Both the position numbers and the translations under genes were made by a program. The notes under the pieces were generated by a model. That model made no database searches. It worked only from the letters and a program-made list of their open reading frames with translations, and was not told the origin of the DNA. A DNA stretch of 38,853 nt from the IMG/VR virus record IMGVR_UViG_2563366820_000006, positions 1 to 38,853 of that record, one strand, 5' to 3'. Source of the DNA: a virus. Lineage: Duplodnaviria; Heunggongvirae; Uroviricota; Caudoviricetes. Every line of letters starts with the position of its first letter. Position 1 is the first letter of the stretch. Positions 698 to 38,853 of this stretch are shown one piece after another.

Positions 698-1060
698 GGG
701 GCTGATTCTGGATTCGACGGGATTTGCGAAACCCAAGGTGCATGCCGAGGGGCGGTTGGCCTCGTAAAAAGCCGCAAAAAATAGTCGCAAACGACGAAAA
801 CTACGCTTTAGCAGCTTAATAACCTGCTTAGAGCCCTCTCTCCCTAGCCTCCGCTCTTAGGACGGGGATCAAGAGAGGTCAAACCCAAAAGAGATCGCGT
901 GGAAGCCCTGCCTGGGGTTGAAGCGTTAAAACTTAATCAGGCTAGTTTGTTAGTGGCGTGTCCGTCCGCAGCTGGCAAGCGAATGTAAAGACTGACTAAG
1001 CATGTAGTACCGAGGATGTAGGAATTTCGGACGCGGGTTCAACTCCCGCCAGCTCCACCA
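698..1060 (+). ncRNA. ssrA: tmRNA (transfer-messenger RNA, SsrA), 363 nt
   Basis: 5' end GGGGCTGATTCTGGATTCGACGGG; internal tag-peptide reading frame region (GCAAACGACGAAAACTACGCTTTAGCAGCTTAA); 3' tRNA-like end GGTTCAACTCCCGCCAGCTCCACCA. Length and sequence match enterobacterial ssrA. Confidence 0.95.
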
Positions 1061-3191: not shown

Positions 3192-3746
3192 TTATTTATC
3201 TCCTGCCGGAAACCTCTGATACAAAGTCGATACGCCAACATCATAGATAATCGCAACTTTCTGGCGCGGAACTCCTGATGCAATTAATCGTCCGGCTTGT
3301 GCCCATTGTTCTGGTGTAAGTTTGGGACGACGTCCACCAATTCGTCCCTGTGCGCGAGCAGCTTCCAGTCCAGCTTTTGTTCGTTCAACAATCAGTTCTC
3401 GTTCCATTTCAGCCAGGGCCCCCATCACATGAAAGAAAAAGCGCCCCATTGGGGTACTGGTATCAATTGAATCCGTCAGACTACGAAAGTTGATGCCTCG
3501 TTCGCGCAACTCCTCCACCAGCACGACAAGATGCCGCATACTGCGCCCCAGCCGGTCCAGTTTCCAGACCACCAGCGTGTCACCTGCCGATAATGTCCTG
3601 AGCAGTTTTTTCAGTCCCGGCCTTTCGGACTTTGTACCGCTTATCTTGTCTTCAAAAATCAGCTCGCATCCTGCACAGTTCAGCGCATTACGTTGTAGAT
3701 CTGTGTTCTGGTCATTTGTTGATACGCGTACATAGCCAATAAGCAT
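3192..3746 (-). CDS. Site-specific DNA invertase, serine recombinase (Hin/Gin/Cin/Pin family)
   Basis: 184 aa starting MLIGYVRVSTNDQ (catalytic Ser region), resolvase core and C-terminal HTH; GGGGGA Shine-Dalgarno before the ATG at 3746; adjacent to tail-fibre cassettes. Confidence 0.92.
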   Translation of the reverse strand: MLIGYVRVSTNDQNTDLQRNALNCAGCELIFEDKISGTKSERPGLKKLLRTLSAGDTLVVWKLDRLGRSMRHLVVLVEELRERGINFRSLTDSIDTSTPMGRFFFHVMGALAEMERELIVERTKAGLEAARAQGRIGGRRPKLTPEQWAQAGRLIASGVPRQKVAIIYDVGVSTLYQRFPAGDK

Positions 3747-3789
3747 GGTAGATCCCCCTGACAAAAGCAGGAATGATGCCATTTGCTCG

Positions 3790-25761: not shown

Positions 25762-26778
25762 ATGTACAATTTGGATGTATCAAAAAAAGAAATCGGTAGA
25801 GTCGGTGATCGGCTCGCATCATTAGCAGAGAGTAATCAAACCCTCCCAGAGAGCGATCTTAATATTTTGCACTCGTGGAGAATGCTACATCTATATCCTT
25901 TAACTAAGCTCACTGAATATTTAACTAGAGAAGCAAATTCAATAAATCAAAATTGTTTAATATCATCAAGAATTAAACGACTCCCATCTATAATATCAAA
26001 ACTTCAACGTTTTGAAGATATGAAGCTAAACAAAATGCAGGATTTGGGGGGGTGTAGAGCTATACTTAGCAATCTTGATGAAGTATATAATACATATGAT
26101 AATATTAAAAAATTAAAATTTAAGCATCAAATAGTCAGAACAGATGATTACATTAAACAAGTAAAAGACTCTGGATATAGAAGTTTACATTTAGTTTATT
26201 CTTTTCAGAATGAGAAGCATGTTAATTTAAATGGGTTAAAAATCGAAATTCAACTCAGAACAGCTATACAACACAGTTGGGCTACTGCGGTTGAAATGGT
26301 TGGCCTTTTTAGGAAAGAATCTCTAAAATCTAGTTTTGGAGATCCTGATTGGTTACGTTTCTTTGAGCTAGTGTCAGAGTTATTTTATGGCATAGAATCA
26401 GGGAAATCCGTTGGTCATTATATGAAAACATCCAGTGACCTAAAAATATTAACAGAAAAACTCAACGTATTCACAATACTTGAAGCCTACAACAAAGTAG
26501 CAAGCCACATTGATTCCTCTGATACATACACCTCGGGTTTTTGCGTTATAATAGTCGATACAGAAAAGCGCAAAATGAATATAAAAAGTTTTCCTGTCCA
26601 TAGCCATAAAGCAGCATCTGATTTTTATATAAAAGAAGAAAAAAATTGTGAAGGGATAAAAGGATATGAGGTAGCCATGGTATCAGTTGATGATATATCA
26701 AATTTAAAAAATGCGTACCCTGCATTCTTCCTAGACACAAAAACATTCTTAAATAACCTGAGTAGATTTATTTTCTAA
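25762..26778 (+). CDS. RelA/SpoT-homologue (RSH) synthetase-domain protein; CapRel-like fused toxSAS toxin-antitoxin candidate
   Basis: 338 aa with the ordered RelA/SpoT synthetase motifs SRIKRLPSIISKL, DLGGCRAIL, GYRSLHLVY and EIQLRTAIQHSWA; about 150 aa C-terminal extension; no adjacent small ORF; AT-rich; opposite strand to the flanking Q and lysis genes. Confidence 0.8.
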   Translation: MYNLDVSKKEIGRVGDRLASLAESNQTLPESDLNILHSWRMLHLYPLTKLTEYLTREANSINQNCLISSRIKRLPSIISKLQRFEDMKLNKMQDLGGCRAILSNLDEVYNTYDNIKKLKFKHQIVRTDDYIKQVKDSGYRSLHLVYSFQNEKHVNLNGLKIEIQLRTAIQHSWATAVEMVGLFRKESLKSSFGDPDWLRFFELVSELFYGIESGKSVGHYMKTSSDLKILTEKLNVFTILEAYNKVASHIDSSDTYTSGFCVIIVDTEKRKMNIKSFPVHSHKAASDFYIKEEKNCEGIKGYEVAMVSVDDISNLKNAYPAFFLDTKTFLNNLSRFIF

Positions 26779-29405: not shown

Positions 29406-29761
29406 ACTTTCAGGCCCCTCTCATGTAACCAGTGGGCTGCACGCAGCCTGGCGTTTTCCTCACCGGCAAGCAGTGAGCGGATAATCCCGACCGCCTCGCT
29501 GTCGTCGTCCTTCACCGCGGTATGAAGCGTTATCCCCCGGGCCACGCCACGCTTTATCGTGATGACGCCTTTTTTCTCCAGAGCACGAAGATGCTCCACC
29601 GCTGCATTCACCGAACGGTATCCCAGCATGGTTGCCACCTCCTGATTGGTTGGTGGGAAGCCACGTTCTTTCTGATAAGAAATCAGCATATCCAGCACCT
29701 GCTGCTGGCATTGAGTTAACGTCGTCATTAAGCCCCCACGTAATTCCCTGACAGATACCAC
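29402..29761 (-). CDS. LexA-N-terminal-domain-like DNA-binding protein (no peptidase domain)
   Basis: Resembles the LexA winged-HTH (TLTQCQQQVLDMLISYQKERGFPPTNQEVATMLGYRSVNAAVEHLRALEKKGVI); real start probably the internal MTTLTQ. Confidence 0.55.
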   Translation of the reverse strand: MVSVRELRGGLMTTLTQCQQQVLDMLISYQKERGFPPTNQEVATMLGYRSVNAAVEHLRALEKKGVITIKRGVARGITLHTAVKDDDSEAVGIIRSLLAGEENARLRAAHWLHERGLKV

Positions 29762-30222
29762 TCTTCACCCGATGCAGCGCGCTTGCTGCTTTTCCGTAAG
29801 CACCGCTCACGACGCGCCAGAAAATTGTTTCGTTCTGGCTGGGAGTGGCTTTCACGGAATGCCGCCATCCACACGGTTGCAGCACGACGAAATAAGCCCC
29901 TGGACTCCAGTTGTTCCGCCTGGCGGGCCAGGCACAAAATCACCCGCGGGTCGTTAGTGCCAACATAGAAATTGCGCACAGGTCTGGTTTCACGAACTGG
30001 TTGTGGTTCCGGTTCCTGCGCTCTCTCAGTCAGGCGCGGGAAATGTCTGCGTGTATCTCCTTCACAACGGTGAGCCACACGCCCACTCTGACGTAACTTG
30101 CTTGCTGACTGCAGAACGCGCTGCCGTGAGTAACCAGCAAAAGCATCCGCAATGTCTCCGGAAGTACACCCCGGATGGGCTTCAATGAATTTCTGAACGT
30201 CATTTAACAGACTCATGATCAC
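29728..30222 (-). CDS. Hypothetical regulator with PerC-like motif
   Basis: 164 aa; central ARQAEQLESRGLFRRAATVWM resembles the PerC/Pch family signature; family assignment tentative. Confidence 0.4.
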   Translation of the reverse strand: MIMSLLNDVQKFIEAHPGCTSGDIADAFAGYSRQRVLQSASKLRQSGRVAHRCEGDTRRHFPRLTERAQEPEPQPVRETRPVRNFYVGTNDPRVILCLARQAEQLESRGLFRRAATVWMAAFRESHSQPERNNFLARRERCLRKSSKRAASGEEWYLSGNYVGA

Positions 30223-31478: not shown

Positions 31479-32044
31479 GCGTTAGTTTCTCCACAACCAG
31501 AAGCAATCGACGCCACGACGCCCGGAGCTGCACACTCGCGGGCGTCATTACTTTCTGAAATGCAAAAAATTTTGTAGACAAGTGCTGCATGCTCCTGCAG
31601 CTTCGAAATTGAGAGATACAGCTCGTCGTTAATTGCTGTCTTCTCATGCGGTTCCACTACACCGTCTTCGATTGCTGAACGAATCTGTTTTGAATAACTG
31701 CCGATCTGTTCAATGACTTCCAGCAGACGCTGGTTAATATCGGCGTTGTCCACATCCTCGACGTCAGGAAGAGACACAAAGACGCCATTTGCAGACTGCG
31801 CCACAGCATCAGCAATGAAGTGAGTGCCACCAGCACGCTGTAAAACCATTGCCCATCCCAGCGGGAAAATCTGATCGCCATCTGCACGAAGGCGGTTGAA
31901 TAAAGCGTTTTCTGTTACATCGAGCCAGTCAGCCGCTTCAGCGTAACCACCCGGCAACGCCGCGATAGTTTTTCTGACAGCTTTCACGTACCACTCAGGC
32001 TGTTTTTCTATTTTCCAGTGATGCTTACCCACGATTAGCCTCAT
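31475..32044 (-). CDS. YdaT-like / CII-like phage regulatory protein (putative)
   Basis: 189 aa directly downstream of the cro-like gene, the same arrangement as ydaS-ydaT-type pairs; assignment by position and weak similarity. Confidence 0.4.
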
Positions 32045-32075
32045 CGTTCTGTGGTTAAAAATTGAAAGTGTTCTG

Positions 32076-32276
32076 CTAATCTTTCGGATAGATATCCGGT
32101 CTTAAGTCAGATTTCGTAATTGCACCTGACGTGCATTGCTCAAGTTTTTTAGCCAGCACAAAACTGGCTTTTTTATAGCCATTGAAAACCAGCCGTAAGT
32201 AGCCAGGTGTTGAGCCAACTTTTCCGGCCAACTCGCCCTGCTGTTCTTTGGTTAAAGAGTCCCAATACGCTTTCAT
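32076..32276 (-). CDS. Cro-like HTH regulator (YdaS/Cro family)
   Basis: 66 aa from the ATG at 32276 with GGAGGT Shine-Dalgarno; HTH segment and C-terminal ..SDLRPDIYPKD typical of the family; divergent from the repressor gene. Confidence 0.7.
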   Translation of the reverse strand: MKAYWDSLTKEQQGELAGKVGSTPGYLRLVFNGYKKASFVLAKKLEQCTSGAITKSDLRPDIYPKD

Positions 32277-32366
32277 ACAATATGTACCTCCGGTGTACAT
32301 ATTACATGATTGAAATGAACCTTCAAGATACTTGTACCTTAACGGTACAAGGGTTTTAATTTCGTT
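32277..32366. promoter_or_regulatory. Immunity-region operator/promoter segment (OR-like) between divergent cro-like and cI-like genes
   Basis: Inverted repeats built from TGTACC / GGTACA half-sites: TGTACCTCCGGTGTACA and TTGTACCTTAACGGTACAA. Confidence 0.55.
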
Positions 32367-33041
32367 ATGAAAACAATCCATGACATCCGGCGGTCTAACG
32401 CCAGAAAACTGAGAGATGGTGTTGGCGGGAATTCTTCCTTTGCCACTATGATTGATCGCGAGCCAACCCAGACCAGCAGGTTTATGGGAGATGGTGCTAC
32501 TAAAAATATCGGTGACAGCATGGCACGACACATCGAAAAATGTTTCGACCTGCCTGTCGGATGGCTCGATCAAGAACACCAGACAACGAACATCACAAAA
32601 AAACCTGATGTTTCAATCACTAATAAACAAATCACATTAGTCCCTGTCATATCATGGGTACAGGCCGGAGCATGGAAAGAAGTTGGATATTCTGAGGTTG
32701 ATTTGAGCACAGCAGAAACGTATCCCTGCCCTGTACCCTGTGGGGAAATGACTTATATCTTGCGGGTGATAGGTGATTCAATGATTGATGAGTACCGCCC
32801 GGGAGACATGATTTTTGTCGATCCTGAAGTACCTGCCTGCCACGGTGACGACGTTATTGCATTGATGCACGATACAGGTGAAACTACCTTCAAAAGGTTG
32901 ATAGAAGATGGGACACAGCGTTATCTCAAAGCGTTAAACCCAAACTGGCCTGAGCCTTACATTAAGATCAACGGTAATTGCTCTATAATTGGTACAGTGA
33001 TTTTCTCAGGAAAACCAAGAAGATACAAAATCAAAGCCTAA
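32367..33041 (+). CDS. CI-like prophage repressor with S24 (LexA-type) peptidase domain
   Basis: 224 aa; N-terminal HTH-like region; C-terminal S24 features (VIGDSM .. GDMIFVDP .. KRL); no Shine-Dalgarno before the ATG at 32367, possibly leaderless like lambda cI from pRM. Confidence 0.85.
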   Translation: MKTIHDIRRSNARKLRDGVGGNSSFATMIDREPTQTSRFMGDGATKNIGDSMARHIEKCFDLPVGWLDQEHQTTNITKKPDVSITNKQITLVPVISWVQAGAWKEVGYSEVDLSTAETYPCPVPCGEMTYILRVIGDSMIDEYRPGDMIFVDPEVPACHGDDVIALMHDTGETTFKRLIEDGTQRYLKALNPNWPEPYIKINGNCSIIGTVIFSGKPRRYKIKA

Positions 33042-33051
33042 TCAATGTTTA

Positions 33052-33078
33052 TGAACCTGCTTCGGCAGGTTTTTTTAT
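33052..33078 (+). terminator. Rho-independent terminator after the repressor gene
   Basis: AACCTGC-ttcg-GCAGGTT hairpin followed by TTTTTTT. Confidence 0.65.
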
Positions 33079-33080
33079 AC

Positions 33081-33108
33081 TTGACAATGTACCTTTGAGA
33101 TACATAAT
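33081..33108 (+). promoter_or_regulatory. pL-like sigma70 promoter with overlapping operator half-sites
   Basis: TTGACA (33081..33086), 16-nt spacer, CATAAT (33103..33108); TGTACC motifs inside and just after the promoter; faces the xis/int-proximal operon. Confidence 0.55.
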
Positions 33109-33217
33109 GTACCCAAGCGAAACAACGAACAGGCAGGACGCCCACGAAGTAGCCGCCTGGGGCATATGAAGTCCAGGATGATTCGTTAGCAACAAAAAAG
33201 CGCCCTATAGGACGCTT

Positions 33218-33231
33218 CGCTCTTTAACAAT
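33218..33231 (+). promoter_or_regulatory. boxA-like antitermination element (rrn/nut type)
   Basis: CGCTCTTTAACAAT about 110 nt downstream of the pL-like promoter; core GCTCTTTAACAA matches the E. coli rrn boxA core. Confidence 0.5.
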
Positions 33232-33448
33232 CTGGAGATCCCCAACACTTAACGGGATTTTGGCTTCGGTTCTGGCGGTGAAGGACGAGGTTTTAAGGGT
33301 ATATGATCCTCTTTCCATGTATATATAAATGCATTCATTTGGTCATCTCAATATAGAATCCATTATTAATTCATACTCATAAAGCCTGTGTGACTTTGGT
33401 GATGGTGGTCTGGGCTTTGGAGGTACATGGTTAGGGATTATGGGAATT

Positions 33449-33928
33449 CTATTTGTCATTATTACACCTTTTTGACCGAGGCAAATCTCCAGCAAACCAT
33501 GCGATAACGCTATGCATGAATGATATTTCTGACTCATCAACACGTCCCAGCGCAATACAGGTCCGTTTGAACGCAGCATCTTGTAAAGATCTCCATGGAT
33601 TACTATCAGCGTCTTGAACCTTTAAAAACCGAGTGCGTAGTTCGTCATCAGAAAGGGAGGAAAACTCAACAATCAACCTTTTATACTGTCGCATCTGTTC
33701 CTTTGATAAGCCAGCTTCCTGCCCAAATTGGTATACCAATTGAAGCACCGACAAAATAGCTACAGATGCGCCAAAAATAAACATATTGCTATATGGCGCA
33801 AAAACAGAAAAGCCCAAGACAATGAGAACAAGAGTTATGCTCTTGTCTATCCGATTTAAAAGGGTGTAATTCATTTTCTCAAGAAAGAAAGAATAATGAA
33901 TATCGAATGCTAGATCGTCTCGAGTCAT
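33449..33928 (-). CDS. SieB-like superinfection exclusion membrane protein (putative)
   Basis: 159 aa; two adjacent transmembrane helices then a soluble C-terminal domain; AT-rich; located in the early-left region next to pL as sieB is in lambdoid phages. Confidence 0.4.
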   Translation of the reverse strand: MTRDDLAFDIHYSFFLEKMNYTLLNRIDKSITLVLIVLGFSVFAPYSNMFIFGASVAILSVLQLVYQFGQEAGLSKEQMRQYKRLIVEFSSLSDDELRTRFLKVQDADSNPWRSLQDAAFKRTCIALGRVDESEISFMHSVIAWFAGDLPRSKRCNNDK

Positions 33929-34308
33929 CTCTATTCCCTTACATTTCAGGTTTCGGCTCAGGGATCGGTGCTGGTCTCTGATTTACCGGAACATGAAATT
34001 TTTCATTGCTATCTACGTACATATTTCCTTCCTACCTGTTGTTGGGATATCCAGATTATACCGAATCCTTGTTGTTGGGGAATAACCAGGTCCACCTCGC
34101 CTGATGTGGCTAAAAGCAGGCACATAACAGCTAAGTATTTTCAACCAGAGAGAATCCTTAGCGTTGTGGTGAATGCGGCTCAGCGCACGCGGGTTAAGGT
34201 TGAGGCTGACAGTCGACCTTCTGTGGATACCCACCCGTCTGGTGTACAACCTTCGCCAGGCACCGGGAGGCACCCGGCACCACAACTTTATGCTGTGTGT
34301 TGTCTTGG

Positions 34309-34355
34309 CGGTACCAGCTTGTACCCTTGCTTCCGGCTGGTACCGTCCTTTTTAC
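34309..34355 (+). terminator. tL-like intrinsic terminator in the early-left transcript
   Basis: 10-bp stem CGGTACCAGC / GCTGGTACCG with 17-nt loop (containing TTGTACCC), followed by TCCTTTTTAC. Confidence 0.4.
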
Positions 34356-34566
34356 AAAACAGAGAAGAGCATCATCGGACGACGGGCTCATAACCCAATC
34401 CATCCGGGCGGCTGCCACCACAGGTGTTCTTCTCTGTTTTGTGGAGAAACTAACCCCCCCTACGGGGGCATTTATGGAAATGTAATTGACTCAATAATCG
34501 CCGGACGGTGAGGGCTTCCTTTTACCCGAATTCAGCGCGGTGCAGCGCATATACGTGGAGAACAAA

Positions 34567-35103
34567 ATGTCATTTATTAAAACTTTTTCCGGGAAGCATT
34601 TTTATTATGACAGGATAAATAAAGACGACATCGTTATTAACGATATCGCGGTTTCCCTTTCAAATATCTGTCGCTTTGCAGGACATCTTTCACACTTCTA
34701 CAGCGTCGCCCAACATGCGGTGCTTTGCAGCCAGCTGGTACCGCAGGAATTTGCTTTTGAAGCGTTAATGCATGATGCAACAGAAGCGTATTGCCAGGAC
34801 ATCCCGGCTCCACTGAAACGCCTTCTTCCTGACTATAAACGGATGGAAGAAAAAATAGACGCCGTAATCCGTGAGAAATACGGGTTACCCCCGGTTATGA
34901 GCACGCCTGTGAAATATGCCGATCTCATCATGCTGGCAACCGAACGCCGCGATCTCGGGCTTGATGATGGCTCTTTCTGGCCTGTACTGGAAGGCATCCC
35001 GGCAACAGAGATGTTCAACGTGATTCCACTGGCACCGGGCCAGGCCTACGGGATGTTTATGGAACGTTTTAACGAGTTATCGGAGTTACGCAAATGCGCA
35101 TGA
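34567..35103 (+). CDS. HD-domain phosphohydrolase (YfbR-like 5'-deoxynucleotidase family)
   Basis: Start chosen at the ATG with GGAG Shine-Dalgarno; H .. HD signature (VAQHAVL .. LMHDATEAY) and DIPAPLKRLL region parallel YfbR. Confidence 0.7.
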   Translation: MSFIKTFSGKHFYYDRINKDDIVINDIAVSLSNICRFAGHLSHFYSVAQHAVLCSQLVPQEFAFEALMHDATEAYCQDIPAPLKRLLPDYKRMEEKIDAVIREKYGLPPVMSTPVKYADLIMLATERRDLGLDDGSFWPVLEGIPATEMFNVIPLAPGQAYGMFMERFNELSELRKCA

Positions 35104-35456
35104 ATGTTTTCGAAATGGAAGGGTTTCTTCGCGGGAAATGTGTACCGCGAGATCTGAAAGTGAACGAAACAAATGCTGAGTACCTAGTTCGTAAATTCAA
35201 CGCGCTTGAAGCTAAATGTGCGGCACTGGAAAACAAAATAATACCAGTGTCAGCTGAACTGCCACCAGCAAATGAAAGTGTTCTGTTATTTGATGCTAGT
35301 GGAGAAGGCTGGCTGATTGGCTGGCGTTCTCTCTGGTACACATGGGGGCAAAAAGAAACCGGAGAATGGCAGTGGACATTTCAGGTCGGGGACCTTGAAA
35401 AGGTCAATATTACCCACTGGGCAGTAATGCCGAAAGCACCGGAGAATAAAAAATGA
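35094..35456 (+). CDS. DUF551-like phage protein
   Basis: 120 aa; Trp-rich C-terminal region (GWLIGWRSLWYTWGQ .. THWAVMP); GGAG Shine-Dalgarno. Confidence 0.5.
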   Translation: MRMNVFEMEGFLRGKCVPRDLKVNETNAEYLVRKFNALEAKCAALENKIIPVSAELPPANESVLLFDASGEGWLIGWRSLWYTWGQKETGEWQWTFQVGDLEKVNITHWAVMPKAPENKK

Positions 35457-35668
35457 GCGTGATAAAAACTCATACAGGAATTGTTATCACCCGAGACGGT
35501 GAAAAGCGGATGAAATTACATTCCACTGAAACCTCCTGGGTTGTCGGACGTTGTGAATCCTACGACAAAAAGACTGGTTACCGTTGGGGCGCGCCAAACA
35601 TGCGCCGCCGTCTGCTCCTGGACAGCATCAGGCCAATAAAACAAGTAGCAACCAGAGAACAAAATTAA
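35453..35668 (+). CDS. Hypothetical small protein
   Basis: 71-aa ORF with GGAG Shine-Dalgarno, within the xis/int-proximal operon. Confidence 0.45.
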   Translation: MSVIKTHTGIVITRDGEKRMKLHSTETSWVVGRCESYDKKTGYRWGAPNMRRRLLLDSIRPIKQVATREQN

Positions 35669-35727
35669 TTATCAGGACTGGAATTTAATATTACTGCCCA
35701 TGTGCAGCGGGCTAAGTGGAGAAACAT

Positions 35728-35934
35728 ATGCTGAACCTCGATTGTGTTCCTATCTCAACTTATTGCAAAGAAACTGGCGAAACTCCTGAAGCAATAAACA
35801 AACGTGTACAGCGCGGTGTTTGGCGTGAAGGTGTTCAGGTTTTAAAGGTTGAAGGCGTTAAGGAGAGGTGGATTGATCTTAGTGAGGTTGCAAAATGGGC
35901 CAGACAAAACTGCTCAAACTACCGCGCGGCGTAA
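35728..35934 (+). CDS. Excisionase-like DNA-binding protein (Xis)
   Basis: 68 aa from the ATG with GGAG Shine-Dalgarno; basic winged-helix-like sequence with conserved Trp residues; immediately upstream of and overlapping int. Confidence 0.6.
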   Translation: MLNLDCVPISTYCKETGETPEAINKRVQRGVWREGVQVLKVEGVKERWIDLSEVAKWARQNCSNYRAA

Positions 35935-37061
35935 CAATCAGGAAACACCGCCAGGGCGAAACGATCAATATAACTTTCACCTACAAAGGCGTTAAATGTC
36001 GTGAGCCTCTTTCCAATCTGGAAGTAACACCAAAGAACATTAAATACGCCGAGCGCACACTCGGCGAAATTCATAATAAGATCGAAAGGGGAACATTCAT
36101 TTATGCGGAATATTTTCCCCGTTCTGCTCGTTTGAAAATTTTTGGTAATGCTGCTGCAGGCAAAACGGTAAAAATGTACCTGGACGAATACCTTGAAATC
36201 TGCGAAACGAGAAAACTTTCACCATCTACGATTGGTGGTTATAAAAAATGCCGTAGTGCGTTAGCCTCACTCCACATTTGCCCTGCAAGTGAATTAACAC
36301 CAGCAATCCTGAAAGCGTGGATTCAAAGCCAGAAAACGACCTTAAAAACAATTCGCAACCAGTTATCTTTCCTGCGGTCAGCACTTGATGAAGCCGTAAC
36401 CGATGGGGTACTTCAAATTAACCCCGTATCGTTGGTAACTGCTTCGCGCTACCAAAGTGATAAGTCAGAAGCAGAAAGCAGCTATGTGGTTGATCCGCTA
36501 TCACCAGCAGAAGTTGATGCATTACTAGCAGCAGCCGGAAACAAACAATGGGAAAATCTGTTCCGGTTCGCCATACATACAGGCCTGCGTAGTTCTGAAT
36601 TATGTGCCCTACGATGGCATGATATCGACTTTGTTGGAAAAACAGCCCATGTTCAGAGCGCAAGTGTTGTCGGAGTTATCAAAGGAACAAAGACAAAAGC
36701 CGGTACCCGTAAAGTTGAACTGACTGAAGAAGCAATGTTGGCGTTGATAAACCAGAAGCCATTTACATTCATGAAGGATGCTACTGTCTTTGAAGATCCA
36801 AAGACCAATAAACCCTGGGCAAGTGCTGATGCAATTAGGAAAAAAGCATGGGTGCCAACATTGCGAAAAGCAGGTATTCGTTACAGAAACCCATATCAAA
36901 CCAGGCATACATTCGCCACCAGACATATCAGCCGGGGAGCAAACCTGTTTTGGCTTGCAGCTCAAATGGGGCATAAAGGGCCTGAGATGCTTTTCAGGCA
37001 CTATGGCTCATATCTGAAGGAATATGATGGACAAACAAGCTTGAAGAAGATAACAATATAA
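35895..37061 (+). CDS. Tyrosine integrase (phage integrase family)
   Basis: 388 aa; N-terminal arm-binding-type domain; C-terminal catalytic region with conserved R .. H-x-x-R .. Y pattern (..TRHTFATRH .. LFRHYGSY). Confidence 0.92.
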   Translation: MGQTKLLKLPRGVTIRKHRQGETINITFTYKGVKCREPLSNLEVTPKNIKYAERTLGEIHNKIERGTFIYAEYFPRSARLKIFGNAAAGKTVKMYLDEYLEICETRKLSPSTIGGYKKCRSALASLHICPASELTPAILKAWIQSQKTTLKTIRNQLSFLRSALDEAVTDGVLQINPVSLVTASRYQSDKSEAESSYVVDPLSPAEVDALLAAAGNKQWENLFRFAIHTGLRSSELCALRWHDIDFVGKTAHVQSASVVGVIKGTKTKAGTRKVELTEEAMLALINQKPFTFMKDATVFEDPKTNKPWASADAIRKKAWVPTLRKAGIRYRNPYQTRHTFATRHISRGANLFWLAAQMGHKGPEMLFRHYGSYLKEYDGQTSLKKITI

Positions 37062-37079
37062 TCCAAGCATGAAACTATT

Positions 37080-37103
37080 GGCCACAATTTGTGGCCATTT
37101 TAC
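37080..37103 (+). terminator. Hairpin / terminator-like element after int
   Basis: Perfect palindrome GGCCACAA-t-TTGTGGCC followed by ATTTTAC. Confidence 0.45.
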
Positions 37104-37119
37104 GGAGCAAGATAGAAAC

Positions 37120-38853
37120 ATGGCAAATCAAATTACCAAACTAAAAAATATAAATGTTGTGAAGTTTCGCGGACTGAAAAATATAAACATCGAGTTTGGT
37201 TCTCGCCTAACTGTTATTTGTGGTAAAAATGGCACATCTAAATCCACAATTCTTGGCATTATCGCCCAAATATTTAGCTTTACAAAGGACTTTACCAAAA
37301 ACCCTGAGACTGATTTAACACAATATAAAACATTAACAAATGGCAGCTTCAAGTCAGCTTTCAGCGAACATTTTAGGCTTTCAGAACAATTTGATGTTCC
37401 TGGTTCAATGGACGTCAAAATTAGTGTCTATGATGGTGCATCGAACAAACATCTTGAAAAACTAACATTAGGTTTATACAGCTACAGTGACAGAGATAAA
37501 TCAAGGCCTGTAGTCAGGGGAAATGATTCAATACCGGAAAAAAACCAAAGTAGAAACGTTACTCATCCTGTTATTTTTTTAAGCTTAGCACGACTTCTTC
37601 CTATTACATTAAGGACTGATTACTCAACACGGGATGTTCAGTACATCAATGAAAATTCTGATGAAATCAGAATGATGAGTAACCAACTCTTACTAAAAAA
37701 CAATGGAAGCTCAGTAACAGCAACAAAAGGTACTATCGATTCAATGGTTGTCCATGGTGACAATTATGATCACCAATCAGTATCTGTTGGTGAAGATAAT
37801 GTTGGACAATTAATCCAAGCAATTTTTTCATTTAAAAGATTGAAGGAAACTTATTCTGATTATCATGGCGGAATATTGTTAATTGATGAAGCCGATGCAG
37901 GTCTTTTCCCTGCTGCACAGTTAGAGCTAATTAATATTCTAACTAAAGCAGCAAAACAATACGATCTGCAAATAATCATGACCTCGCACTCTCCATTAAT
38001 AATAGAGGATATCTATAATCGTTCAAAACAAGATAGTGATAGCTTTAAAACAATATATCTTACAGACACATATGGAGATATTAAAACAAAGAATAATCTT
38101 TCATGGACAGATATCCACGCTGATTTACATGTTGAAACTGTAAAAATTAATGATGACATTTGTCTTCCAAAGGCAAATGTATATTTTGAAGACAAAGAAG
38201 GTTTCGACTTTTTCAAACAATTGATAACAGATCGTAAAATAAATAAAATATTAAATCCATTAGGGAATATAAATATTAGCTGCTCTGCCATGCTTGACTT
38301 AATGGCAAGAAAAATACCAGAATTTACAGCTAAAAGCTTGATCGTCTTAGACGGTGATGTTGTTCACGACAATAGTGCTAATGCAAAAAAAGCCAAAAAA
38401 GAAAAAAACTTATGTTTGCTTCCAAGCACCTTACCTCCAGACCAAATGATTTTTGAGTTTTTATATAATTTACCACCTGATGATGCATATTGGGAAAATA
38501 AAAATAAATTTACAAAAGCTGTTTTTATGAAAACAGCTAAAGACATAATTGCAACGCTAAAGATTGGTAACGCTCCGATTGATTTAAAAATCCTTATAGA
38601 TAATTATAAAAAAGTTAACAAAAACCATGGCGGGATAGTTAGAAAACTGTTTAAAGATTTTGCACATACGACTCAATTTCAGGCCCAAGTAAAAGGGCGA
38701 GTTAAAGATAACCCATATCGATATTGGGTCGAGAAAAATCCTGTGCAATCGGATAGCTTCAAGAATGAACTAATAAAGAGTCTTAAAGTTATTATGACAA
38801 GTGGACATGGTGTCGATTCTGCTACCATCTCATCATATCTGTCAGATAACTAA
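37120..38853 (+). CDS. ABC-type ATPase fused to a C-terminal TOPRIM-like domain (OLD-family-like; P2 Old / PARIS-like defence candidate)
   Basis: Start taken at MANQITKLKNINVVKF (tracked ORF starts at 37069). Walker A GKNGTSKST; Walker B ILLIDEADAGL; H-loop-like MTSHSP; C-terminal acidic motifs YFEDKEG and LIVLDGD about 45 aa apart. AT-rich; ends at the window edge. Confidence 0.75.
   Translation: MANQITKLKNINVVKFRGLKNINIEFGSRLTVICGKNGTSKSTILGIIAQIFSFTKDFTKNPETDLTQYKTLTNGSFKSAFSEHFRLSEQFDVPGSMDVKISVYDGASNKHLEKLTLGLYSYSDRDKSRPVVRGNDSIPEKNQSRNVTHPVIFLSLARLLPITLRTDYSTRDVQYINENSDEIRMMSNQLLLKNNGSSVTATKGTIDSMVVHGDNYDHQSVSVGEDNVGQLIQAIFSFKRLKETYSDYHGGILLIDEADAGLFPAAQLELINILTKAAKQYDLQIIMTSHSPLIIEDIYNRSKQDSDSFKTIYLTDTYGDIKTKNNLSWTDIHADLHVETVKINDDICLPKANVYFEDKEGFDFFKQLITDRKINKILNPLGNINISCSAMLDLMARKIPEFTAKSLIVLDGDVVHDNSANAKKAKKEKNLCLLPSTLPPDQMIFEFLYNLPPDDAYWENKNKFTKAVFMKTAKDIIATLKIGNAPIDLKILIDNYKKVNKNHGGIVRKLFKDFAHTTQFQAQVKGRVKDNPYRYWVEKNPVQSDSFKNELIKSLKVIMTSGHGVDSATISSYLSDN

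Follow-up and report, generated by a model that had tools for sequence, protein, structure and literature searches.

A widely conserved structured leader RNA at the early-left promoter of N-less lambdoid prophages and its possible role in transcription elongation

How lambdoid phages without N (e14, Rac/Gifsy-like prophages, SfV, ST64B) carry early-left transcription beyond terminators and Rho as far as xis, int and the recombination genes is, to our knowledge, largely unexplained outside HK022 and HK639. The same question is raised by the IMG/VR record IMGVR_UViG_2563366820_000006, of which positions 1 to 38,853 were analysed (the window, 38,853 nucleotides (nt)). Its interval 33052..33231 is the early-left promoter and operator region (pL/OL), the counterpart of lambda pL, and ahead of the first plus-strand gene the transcript from this promoter has to cross a strong intrinsic terminator and about 1.45 kb that are not translated. 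A 64-nt RNA motif occupies positions 33124..33187 of the plus strand and starts about 9 nt into the predicted transcript. This leader RNA is previously unannotated and widely conserved, and it is almost certainly a genuine conserved RNA. By analogy with known phage systems, there is about an even chance that the leader RNA, helped here by a boxA and Nus factors, makes pL transcription termination-resistant up to yfdR, xis and int.

The leader motif consists of three helices. A closing stem (P1, 33124-29 paired with 33182-87) encloses a joining region of 24 nt, AGGCAGGACGCCCACGAAGUAGCC (33131-54), which is near-invariant and contains a small GGC/GCC hairpin, and is followed by the P3 hairpin (33156-60 paired with 33173-77, loop GGCAUAUGAAGU) and by the junction AUGA at 33178-81. 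The segment GGCAGGACGCCCACGAAGUAGCC belongs to the same leader RNA. Single-stranded parts are kept between the helices, namely the near-invariant AGGCAGGACGCCCACGAAGUAGCY, the loop GGCAUAYGAA and the AUGA junction. The alignment of 86 distinct sequences (A1) was obtained from an IMG/VR scan with an 18-nt core, which returned at least 120 loci. Pairing was found in 93% of the pair cells of this alignment, versus 63.6% in column shuffles, and 10 of the 11 base pairs showed compensatory changes on both sides. The covariation score was 0.705 versus 0.186, a value reached by 0 of 500 shuffles, and it fell to 0.17 or less when the partners were slid by 1-3 columns. Variants of P1 include AACGAA/UUCGUU, GCGAA/UUCGC, GUCAUC/GAUGAC and CCACC/GGUGG, and those of P3 include CCUGG/CCAGG, CCGGU/ACCGG, CCGAC/GUCGG and CCAGC/GCUGG. 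RNAalifold returned the same helices, plus the invariant 3-bp GGC/GCC hairpin with its AGGAC loop. A covariance model of the motif (R1) scored 91 bits at the window copy and detected no second (putR-like) site elsewhere in the window. At loci picked for another reason, R1 found four more copies, each with one core substitution; the copy in a T5-like phage has a larger hairpin loop and retains the GGC/GCC stem. The initial annotation had named an unrecognised RNA element as a fallback; that element can now be specified as the conserved structured leader at 33124..33187, right after the promoter.

At most loci, a TTGAC-type promoter ends 20-31 nt upstream of the core, within operator palindromes that differ or are unrelated, and the gene clusters most often seen upstream are repressors on the same strand (68 and 49 of 125 loci). 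Judged from these neighbourhoods, the motif is located at the pL position, where putL of HK022 is also located (PMC9378689). More than 130 distinct loci of phages and prophages, differing in their immunity regions, carry the motif, and at least 120 IMG/VR contigs have it. Of the 120 matches listed from a scan of a genome collection, 78 were chance 18-mers in GC-rich genomes and were filtered out; the others represent at least 42 Enterobacterales species. Blastn detected the motif in 1855 of 5426 complete E. coli genomes. The copy in the e14 prophage of K-12 (NC_000913 1202106..1202180, 72.9 bits) stands behind an identical pL. Other carriers are SfV, SfII, SfIV, ST64B, mEp237, SPN3UB, SEN34, ZF40, YeP phages, phiNP and the Aeromonas phage pAEv1818 (73.5 bits). 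The virulent T5-like Providencia phage vB_PreS_PR1 harbors a copy of 64 bits in its terminal repeat (L360 2498..2600), directly behind the promoter TTGCTT-17-TATACT and followed by CGCTCTTTAAAAA. There it heads the leftward pre-early operon, which comprises PR1_7, PR1_6, A2, A1, an annotated internal terminator and dmp.

No annotated feature lies beneath the motif at the sampled matches covering it in full, and Rfam 15 gave no match at the motif even at E values up to 10; across the window, only a transfer-messenger RNA (tmRNA) passed the Rfam threshold, together with a sub-threshold STnc100. The core sequence was absent from the papers searched, and literature searches on put-like elements and processive antitermination returned no description of the motif. 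Repression of pL in the lysogen would explain why K-12 transcriptomes missed the leader RNA. Hammerhead and other small ribozyme cores were considered and rejected, because their junction sequences do not fit by inspection and Rfam was negative.

Related leaders were seen at the edge of this distribution. The Rac prophage of K-12 (L238 8200..9700, minus strand) has a degenerate motif after its racR-side pL that was missed by R1. In cdtI-type phages (L007 2100..2500; L010/L047/L073), the pL is 88% identical and the motif is replaced by a different leader of about 400 nt, which includes an STnc100-like domain of its own (GUGGUAAUCCGCG...CACCACAAC). A piece of this cdtI-type leader stands before the motif in some contigs.

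The promoter is assigned as the pL equivalent because of the prophage gene layout on both strands. The window is an E. coli prophage of the e14/SfV/SfIV/PhiR29 group, an N-less lambdoid, whose minus strand encodes cro-like, CII(CP76)-like, O-like, DUF968 and Q (PF06530) proteins, followed by lysis and structural genes. The cI-type repressor gene lies on the plus strand (32367..33041; Peptidase_S24, E 1.5e-26), and an identical gene is annotated in RefSeq as ymfK, LexA family, in matching E. coli genomes. The repressor transcript has an intrinsic terminator at 33053..33072 (plus strand; 8-bp stem, then TTTTTTT). It is followed by pL at 33081..33108 (plus strand), with TTGACA at 33081..33086, a 16-nt spacer and CATAAT at 33103..33108. 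The promoter scores 11/12 to the consensus and is the sole site with at least 11/12 in 31900..35200; transcription is predicted to start near 33115. An imperfect palindrome, ATGTACCTTTGAGATACAT (33087..33105), lies over the promoter spacer as the operator. Its ATGTACC half-sites at 33087 and 33107 match ATGTACC/GGTACA half-sites between cI and the divergent cro-like gene (32282, 32333 and 32344), and TGTACC occurs 12 times in the remaining ~37.8 kb of the window. The pL sequence is identical in K-12 e14 and differs by one spacer base in SfV. Both the near-consensus promoter after the repressor terminator and the operator half-sites resembling those between cI and cro had been described in the initial annotation, and both were confirmed. 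So was its statement that no N-like gene stands behind pL: plus-strand open reading frames (ORFs) in 33100..34620 matched no Pfam or PHROG family, N-like or other, and the next plus-strand gene, at 34567 as previously noted, is yfdR-like. A comparison of 34133..34455 with ST64B gave substitutions of 22/22/25 by phase, with no codon periodicity, and indels of 1, 1 and 20 nt. An N-like or other coding origin of 33100..34620 was therefore rejected, given the lack of both family matches and codon periodicity. No N is listed in the annotated carriers SfV, ST64B, mEp237, SPN3UB and e14, and no gene family is universal in the neighbourhoods of 125 motif loci. The first-step-transfer region of PR1 shares no protein with the window, a comparison that assumes that the motif acts during pre-early transcription.

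The leader is followed in the window by an rrn-type boxA, GCTCTTTAACAAT, at 33219..33231 (plus strand), approximately at +104 from the predicted start. The resemblance to rrn noted earlier proved exact: all 13 positions are identical to the boxA of the rrnB leader, TGCTCTTTAACAAT, as read from K-12, while a boxA with at most one mismatch is expected by chance 0.06 times per window. In the orientation of the transcript, which is non-coding, it matches GCUCUUUAACAA and lies close to the 5' end. A hairpin, AAGCGCCC-UAUA-GGACGCUU (33197..33218), can form on either strand. On the plus strand it takes the position of the boxB hairpin of rrn leaders, and the minus-strand form, with 9 pairs and a T-run, is an intrinsic terminator. 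The rrnB leader reads GCGAAGCGGCAC-TGCTCTTTAACAAT and likewise has a hairpin directly before boxA. The elements form a compact module, composed of an A-run, the hairpin GCGCCC-NNNN-GGACGC, UU(N) and then GCUCUUUAACAAUCUGG, and the module is found again on the left border of several different cassettes and in other contexts upstream. Sequence 3' of boxA varies among loci and has no conserved hairpin, the sole hairpin being the one that precedes it, and no boxC-like UGUGUGGG was found after the window boxA.

Counting matches of at least 11/12 to GCTCTTTAACAA on the same strand within 250 nt downstream of the motif, boxA was present in 24 of 133 distinct loci (18%), versus 2 of 133 in a control region and 0 of 133 on the opposite strand. 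Two of the 24, L345 and the T5-like phage, do not have the usual GGACGCUU hairpin arm directly upstream; boxA of the latter, CGCUCUUUAAAAA, lies 17 nt after the motif. SfV and K-12 e14 share the pL and leader yet have no such module, and neither does the heteroimmune ST64B, which shares the leader; boxA is therefore an optional companion of the leader and not a general mechanism. The earlier proposal of antitermination through boxA and Nus factors thus finds support in the exact boxA and its significant association with the leader, and fails as a general explanation. The recurrent pairing of the motif with a loading signal for NusB/NusE is the strongest indication that the leader acts on the elongation complex.

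What the polymerase meets downstream was resolved by aligning the interval from pL to yfdR with SfV, PhiR29_1, ST64B, phage 118970_sal3, Klebsiella phage Kp4866-6, phiES15 and cdtI. The alignment divides the interval into six parts: (a) the promoter and operator, common only to homoimmune phages; (b) 33122..33186, kept despite unrelated repressors and operators (ST64B 87%, sal3 86%, Kp4866-6 95%); (c) a variable cassette at 33189..~34036, whose gene content differs among the phages; (d) a short conserved element at 34092..34132; (e) a block of ~215 nt with the terminator at its end; and (f) a 20-bp hairpin at 34354..34442, which together with the terminator is shared more widely (cdtI, mEp460 and Stx2c phages). 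SfV shares pL, the leader motif, the small RNA (sRNA) module and the terminator at 96-97% identity. Its terminator is followed by yfdP and yfdQ, both of which are missing from the window. Of 5426 complete E. coli genomes, 52 have the full 1.5-kb pL-interval arrangement and 3034 have parts of it; RefSeq annotation at this arrangement consists of hypothetical proteins only.

Within the variable cassette, a membrane-like moron ORF of 159 amino acids (aa) lies antisense to the pL transcript (33449..33928, minus strand), and the untranslated transcript is slightly C-rich over it. The ORF matches phrog_6315, a family of unknown function, and has no Pfam or PADLOC match. Its former label 'SieB-like' was not confirmed: with no Pfam match and a BLASTP E value of 0.065 against SieB of K-12 Rac, it resembles sieB in position and orientation only. 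At the right boundary of the cassette, positions 34040..34110 are conserved across different cassettes, and their minus strand contains GGTATAATC, a perfect -10, which is probably the promoter of the antisense moron.

The short element at 34092..34132 (plus strand) comprises a small hairpin followed by CATAAC, is conserved in SfV, sal3, Kp4866-6 and phiES15 (97%), and is possibly the promoter of the sRNA module downstream. This module (34133..34356, plus strand) is a divergent member of the STnc100/PasD/KilS type of prophage sRNAs, matching the full length of Rfam RF02076 (STnc100) with 39.6 bits and E 9.6e-7, short of the gathering score of 47. Its parts include the closing helix GUUGUGGUG...CACCACAAC (34166..34289) and an exact copy of the conserved 22-nt hairpin CACCGGGAGGCACCCGGCACCA (34261..34282). 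At least 120 viral contigs contain this 22-mer, some of them in tandem, and so does HK639. The 22-mer occurs twice in L136, L141, L157, L171, L180, L191 and L196, with a distance of 484 nt in four of them. The 3' part of the module (the terminator and ~20 nt before it) is homologous to the 3' part of the annotated K-12 Rac sRNA KilS. In Rac, KilS ends at the terminator homologous to that of the window, and a second STnc100-like domain lies directly upstream of kilR. STnc100, PasD and EcOnc27 are Hfq-associated prophage sRNAs with unclear function (bioRxiv 10.64898/2026.05.13.724894; PMC12370729; PMC12711010). The window module shares with STnc100, PasD, EcOnc27 and KilS the closing helix, the exact CACCGGGAGGCACCCGGCACCA and the terminal intrinsic terminator. 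It differs in a variant 5' hairpin, GGUGAAUGCGGCUCAGCGCACG, and in its position inside the pL operon between the repressor and xis/int, whereas STnc100 types are found in the late region or downstream of stx2.

The intrinsic terminator lies at 34307..34353 (plus strand; stem 34307..34349, T-run 34349..34353, ~-22 kcal/mol). Its stem sequence is entirely different in ST64B, with pairing kept via compensatory changes. The hairpin terminator reported in the initial annotation is thus strong and real, but it is not a bare operon terminator; it is the 3' end of the STnc100/KilS-type sRNA module within the pL operon. Directly after it, the 20-bp hairpin ACAAAACAGAGAAGAGCAUC...GGUGUUCUUCUCUGUUUUGU (plus strand) is possibly a processing site; its pairing survives in ST64B, where one double change and several changes to or from wobble pairs are seen. 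The fold of 34085..34460 has z = -4.8. The annotation of K-12 e14 makes the whole module a coding sequence, ymfH (b1142; L365 5070..5381), which spans most of the e14 STnc100-like RNA (from ~34157 in window terms), the terminator and the 20-bp hairpin. A 75-aa minus-strand ORF of the window (34194..34421) matches phrog_3651. Because the region evolves as non-coding, the ymfH and phrog_3651 ORF calls are probably spurious, and the PHROG family was probably built from calls over an RNA region. Across motif loci, strong terminator-like hairpins on the same strand in the 1.5 kb after the motif (33 of 78 loci) have a density of 0.30 per kb, versus 0.10-0.12 elsewhere (about threefold), which agrees with a need for readthrough.

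Beyond the terminator, the early-left operon (34567..37061, plus strand) has the gene order of SfV and PhiR29. It comprises a yfdR-like HD 5'-deoxynucleotidase (34567..35103) and DUF551 (35094..35456), both with Pfam matches, then a small ORF, an ORF at the xis position (35716..35934) and an integrase with a Pfam match (35895..37061). The operon from yfdR to integrase would be served by pL.

Three known systems offer comparisons. Like put of HK022 and HK639, the window motif lies just downstream of pL in an N-less lambdoid phage, and both are structured nascent RNAs of ~65-75 nt with a GGAUGA-like segment; HK639, like the window, has a left-operon copy only. An HK022-type put acts in cis on RNA polymerase, at the beta' zinc-binding domain, suppressing pausing and termination with no protein factors, and the rpoC change Y75N blocks it. 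Nevertheless, R1 found no put in HK022 or HK639. A reciprocal model (R2), built from HK022 putL, HK022 putR and HK639 putL, found no match at the motif of the window, e14, PR1, pAEv1818, ST64B or SPN3UB. Membership of the HK022-type put class is rejected on these reciprocal models, which show no similarity in sequence or secondary structure to putL/putR with their conserved CGAACGGC...GUCGG...GGCGGG..AGGAUGA..CAAU and two long stem-loops. A resemblance to put visible by eye (CGAAC..GGC, CAGGAUGA) is partly an accident of one subfamily, in which CGAAC sits in the covarying P1. The architecture differs as well: put is built of two long stems with a triplex (PMC9378689), the motif of a closing stem that surrounds a short hairpin and a long junction of invariant sequence. 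The motif is often accompanied by boxA, while put needs no dedicated trans-acting protein factors (PMC9378689), and the motif is far more widespread and more conserved in sequence. In the HK639 record, an 'M3-like RNA' is annotated downstream of cII (L130 37910..37969), besides the putL-like RNA.

Lambda nut is likewise a promoter-proximal RNA signal of the early-left operon with a boxA of the GCUCUUUA type, to whose consensus the window boxA is closer than the lambda boxA. Lambda nut depends on the N protein, whereas the window has neither an N gene nor an N-like ORF downstream of pL. In lambda, boxB (5-bp stem, pentaloop) follows boxA, whereas no 5-bp GNRA-like pentaloop boxB is found there in the window and the structure precedes boxA. 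The third comparison is with the rrn leader signal (boxB-boxA-boxC) and the boxA leaders of CRISPR arrays and suhB. The rrn leader resembles the window in the hairpin directly before boxA and in the 13/13 identity, and boxA of the window opens a long untranslated transcript, a setting where BoxA/Nus complexes block Rho (PMC7665894). Unlike the rrn leader, the window element has no boxC, is phage-borne and optional (18% of motif loci), and its hairpin doubles as the minus-strand terminator of the antisense moron.

Based on these comparisons, the following mechanism is conceivable. Transcription from pL would begin near 33115, and the leader would fold ~9 nt on. The nascent leader would act in cis on the transcribing RNA polymerase, working alone, as HK022 put RNAs do, or through conserved host factors, and elongation would become termination-resistant; put of HK022 renders the elongation complex termination-resistant (PMC9378689). 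The hairpin and boxA (33197..33231) would recruit NusB/NusE and shield the long untranslated transcript from Rho. The modified polymerase could then run antisense over the moron and pass the terminator at 34307..34353 and the 20-bp hairpin, so that yfdR, xis and int would be expressed. That the motif is a second class of phage RNA that reprograms RNA polymerase in cis, unrelated in sequence to put, acting alone or with boxA and NusB-NusE, and of far wider spread, is proposed tentatively, at somewhat less than an even chance.

Several points weigh against termination resistance conferred by the leader. Its function is deduced from position, association and analogy; the likeness to put would be functional only, as the motif is not a put RNA. 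The single-sequence fold of the leader has no unusual stability (z = -0.8), and the near-invariance of the core is partly built in, the 18-mer having been the search pattern. A few loci (L010 type) have no good promoter within ~90 nt upstream of the motif, and boxA is absent from 82% of motif loci. Same-strand terminator-like hairpins of -17 kcal/mol or below were found within 1.5 kb downstream of the motif in only 33 of 78 loci, with a crude finder, whose output is permissive at a cutoff of -8 kcal/mol and becomes informative only from -15 kcal/mol downwards. Roberts, Allison and Verma (2007, J Gen Virol 88:3187) reportedly described a termination-mediated immunity of SfV that is RNA-mediated, with Orf77 as an antiterminator, and may assign this region differently.

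Four other explanations have to be weighed. One is that boxA and host Nus factors alone, as a complex of the rrn or CRISPR-leader type, protect the pL transcript while the leader has another role. The 13/13 match to rrnB, the hairpin placed before boxA as in rrn leaders, and the ~1.45 kb of untranslated and, over the moron, slightly C-rich RNA, a plausible Rho substrate, all agree with this. However, the main target of rrn-type complexes is Rho, and they have little effect on a strong intrinsic terminator like that at 34307..34353. SfV, K-12 e14, ST64B and most other motif loci have no boxA module, and in the window no boxC-like sequence follows boxA. Protection of non-coding transcripts by boxA is established for CRISPR arrays (PMC7665894), but as an account of this locus boxA alone is unlikely. 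The leader could instead be a nut-like site for an unrecognised phage antiterminator protein, an N analogue or the 'Orf77' of SfV, with boxA as the Nus-factor half. A boxA beside a structured RNA does mirror lambda nut (boxA and boxB), the association of motif and boxA is significant (24/133), and the title of Roberts et al. 2007, as cited in PMC3475682, implies an SfV function that prevents termination. Yet the neighbourhoods of the 125 loci have no gene family in common, the T5-like first-step-transfer region shares no protein with the window prophage, and the interval offers no plus-strand ORF with a family match, 34133..34455 evolving as non-coding. The near-invariance of the core over heteroimmune and unrelated phages is also easier to reconcile with a host target than with a phage protein that co-evolves, which makes a protein-dependent site quite unlikely.

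A role outside termination, as a 5' stabiliser or processing signal, a CsrA-type platform or a ligand-sensing leader, appears rather unlikely. Two conserved GGA motifs lie ~40 nt apart, one in the AGGAC hairpin loop and one in GGAUGA, and such paired motifs resemble CsrA sites. Stabilisation of mRNA by 5'-proximal structures is common, and a strong downstream terminator is present in only ~40% of loci. A stabiliser would, however, have no need of a near-invariant joining region of 24 nt, the motif is not followed by a consistent expression platform (a terminator or a helix sequestering the Shine-Dalgarno sequence) but by freely varying sequence, and the association with boxA points to the elongation complex. 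Improbable, though compatible with termination resistance conferred by the leader, is an RNA immunity in the style of P4, P1 and N15, in which the STnc100-type RNA (34133..34356) would terminate pL transcripts in trans with the leader as its target or decoy. In favour are the conservation of the sRNA module, its place within the pL operon and the annotation of its K-12 Rac counterpart KilS as an sRNA, as well as the immunity reportedly described for SfV by Roberts et al. By contrast, inspection without a formal duplex search revealed no obvious complementarity between leader and sRNA, about half of the motif loci have no STnc100-like or terminator module, and STnc100-type modules mostly reside elsewhere, in late regions and downstream of stx2. 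Termination resistance conferred by the leader RNA, with boxA and Nus factors as optional helpers, is thus the reading retained here.

Some features of the window lie apart from the pL region. A complete tmRNA gene (ssrA, 295.8 bits) is located at 698..1060 (plus strand), beside the tail end of the prophage, with the integrase ~35 kb off. A serine invertase of the Pin/Gin type (3192..3782, minus strand) lies near the tail-fibre end, and a homologue of PerC-like activators (29728..30222, minus strand) in the early-right operon. Between Q and the lysis genes, the opposite strand encodes a 338-aa RelA/SpoT-domain protein (25762..26778, plus strand) that matches the candidate defence family PDC-S33 in PADLOC (E 2e-114) and, by its domain content, looks like a toxSAS-type moron or defence gene. 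Directly after the integrase, a 594-aa ABC-type AAA ATPase (AAA_15/AAA_21; 37069..38853, plus strand), whose best PADLOC matches are PtuA, GajA and AriA, may be a defence system at the prophage edge.

A conserved and unannotated leader RNA at pL offers a concrete and testable answer to how N-less lambdoid phages transcribe their early-left operons, and its presence in K-12 itself puts it within reach of tests in the standard laboratory strain. The findings also bear on annotation, as conserved RNA modules downstream of the leader are now called proteins (ymfH of K-12 and the phrog_3651 ORFs). If the leader does modify RNA polymerase, it would be only the second phage RNA class of this kind known in Gram-negatives, as well as a compact tool and a structural target. 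This class would span about one third of E. coli genomes, including e14 of K-12, many Enterobacterales prophages, Aeromonas phages and the pre-early operon of a T5-like phage.

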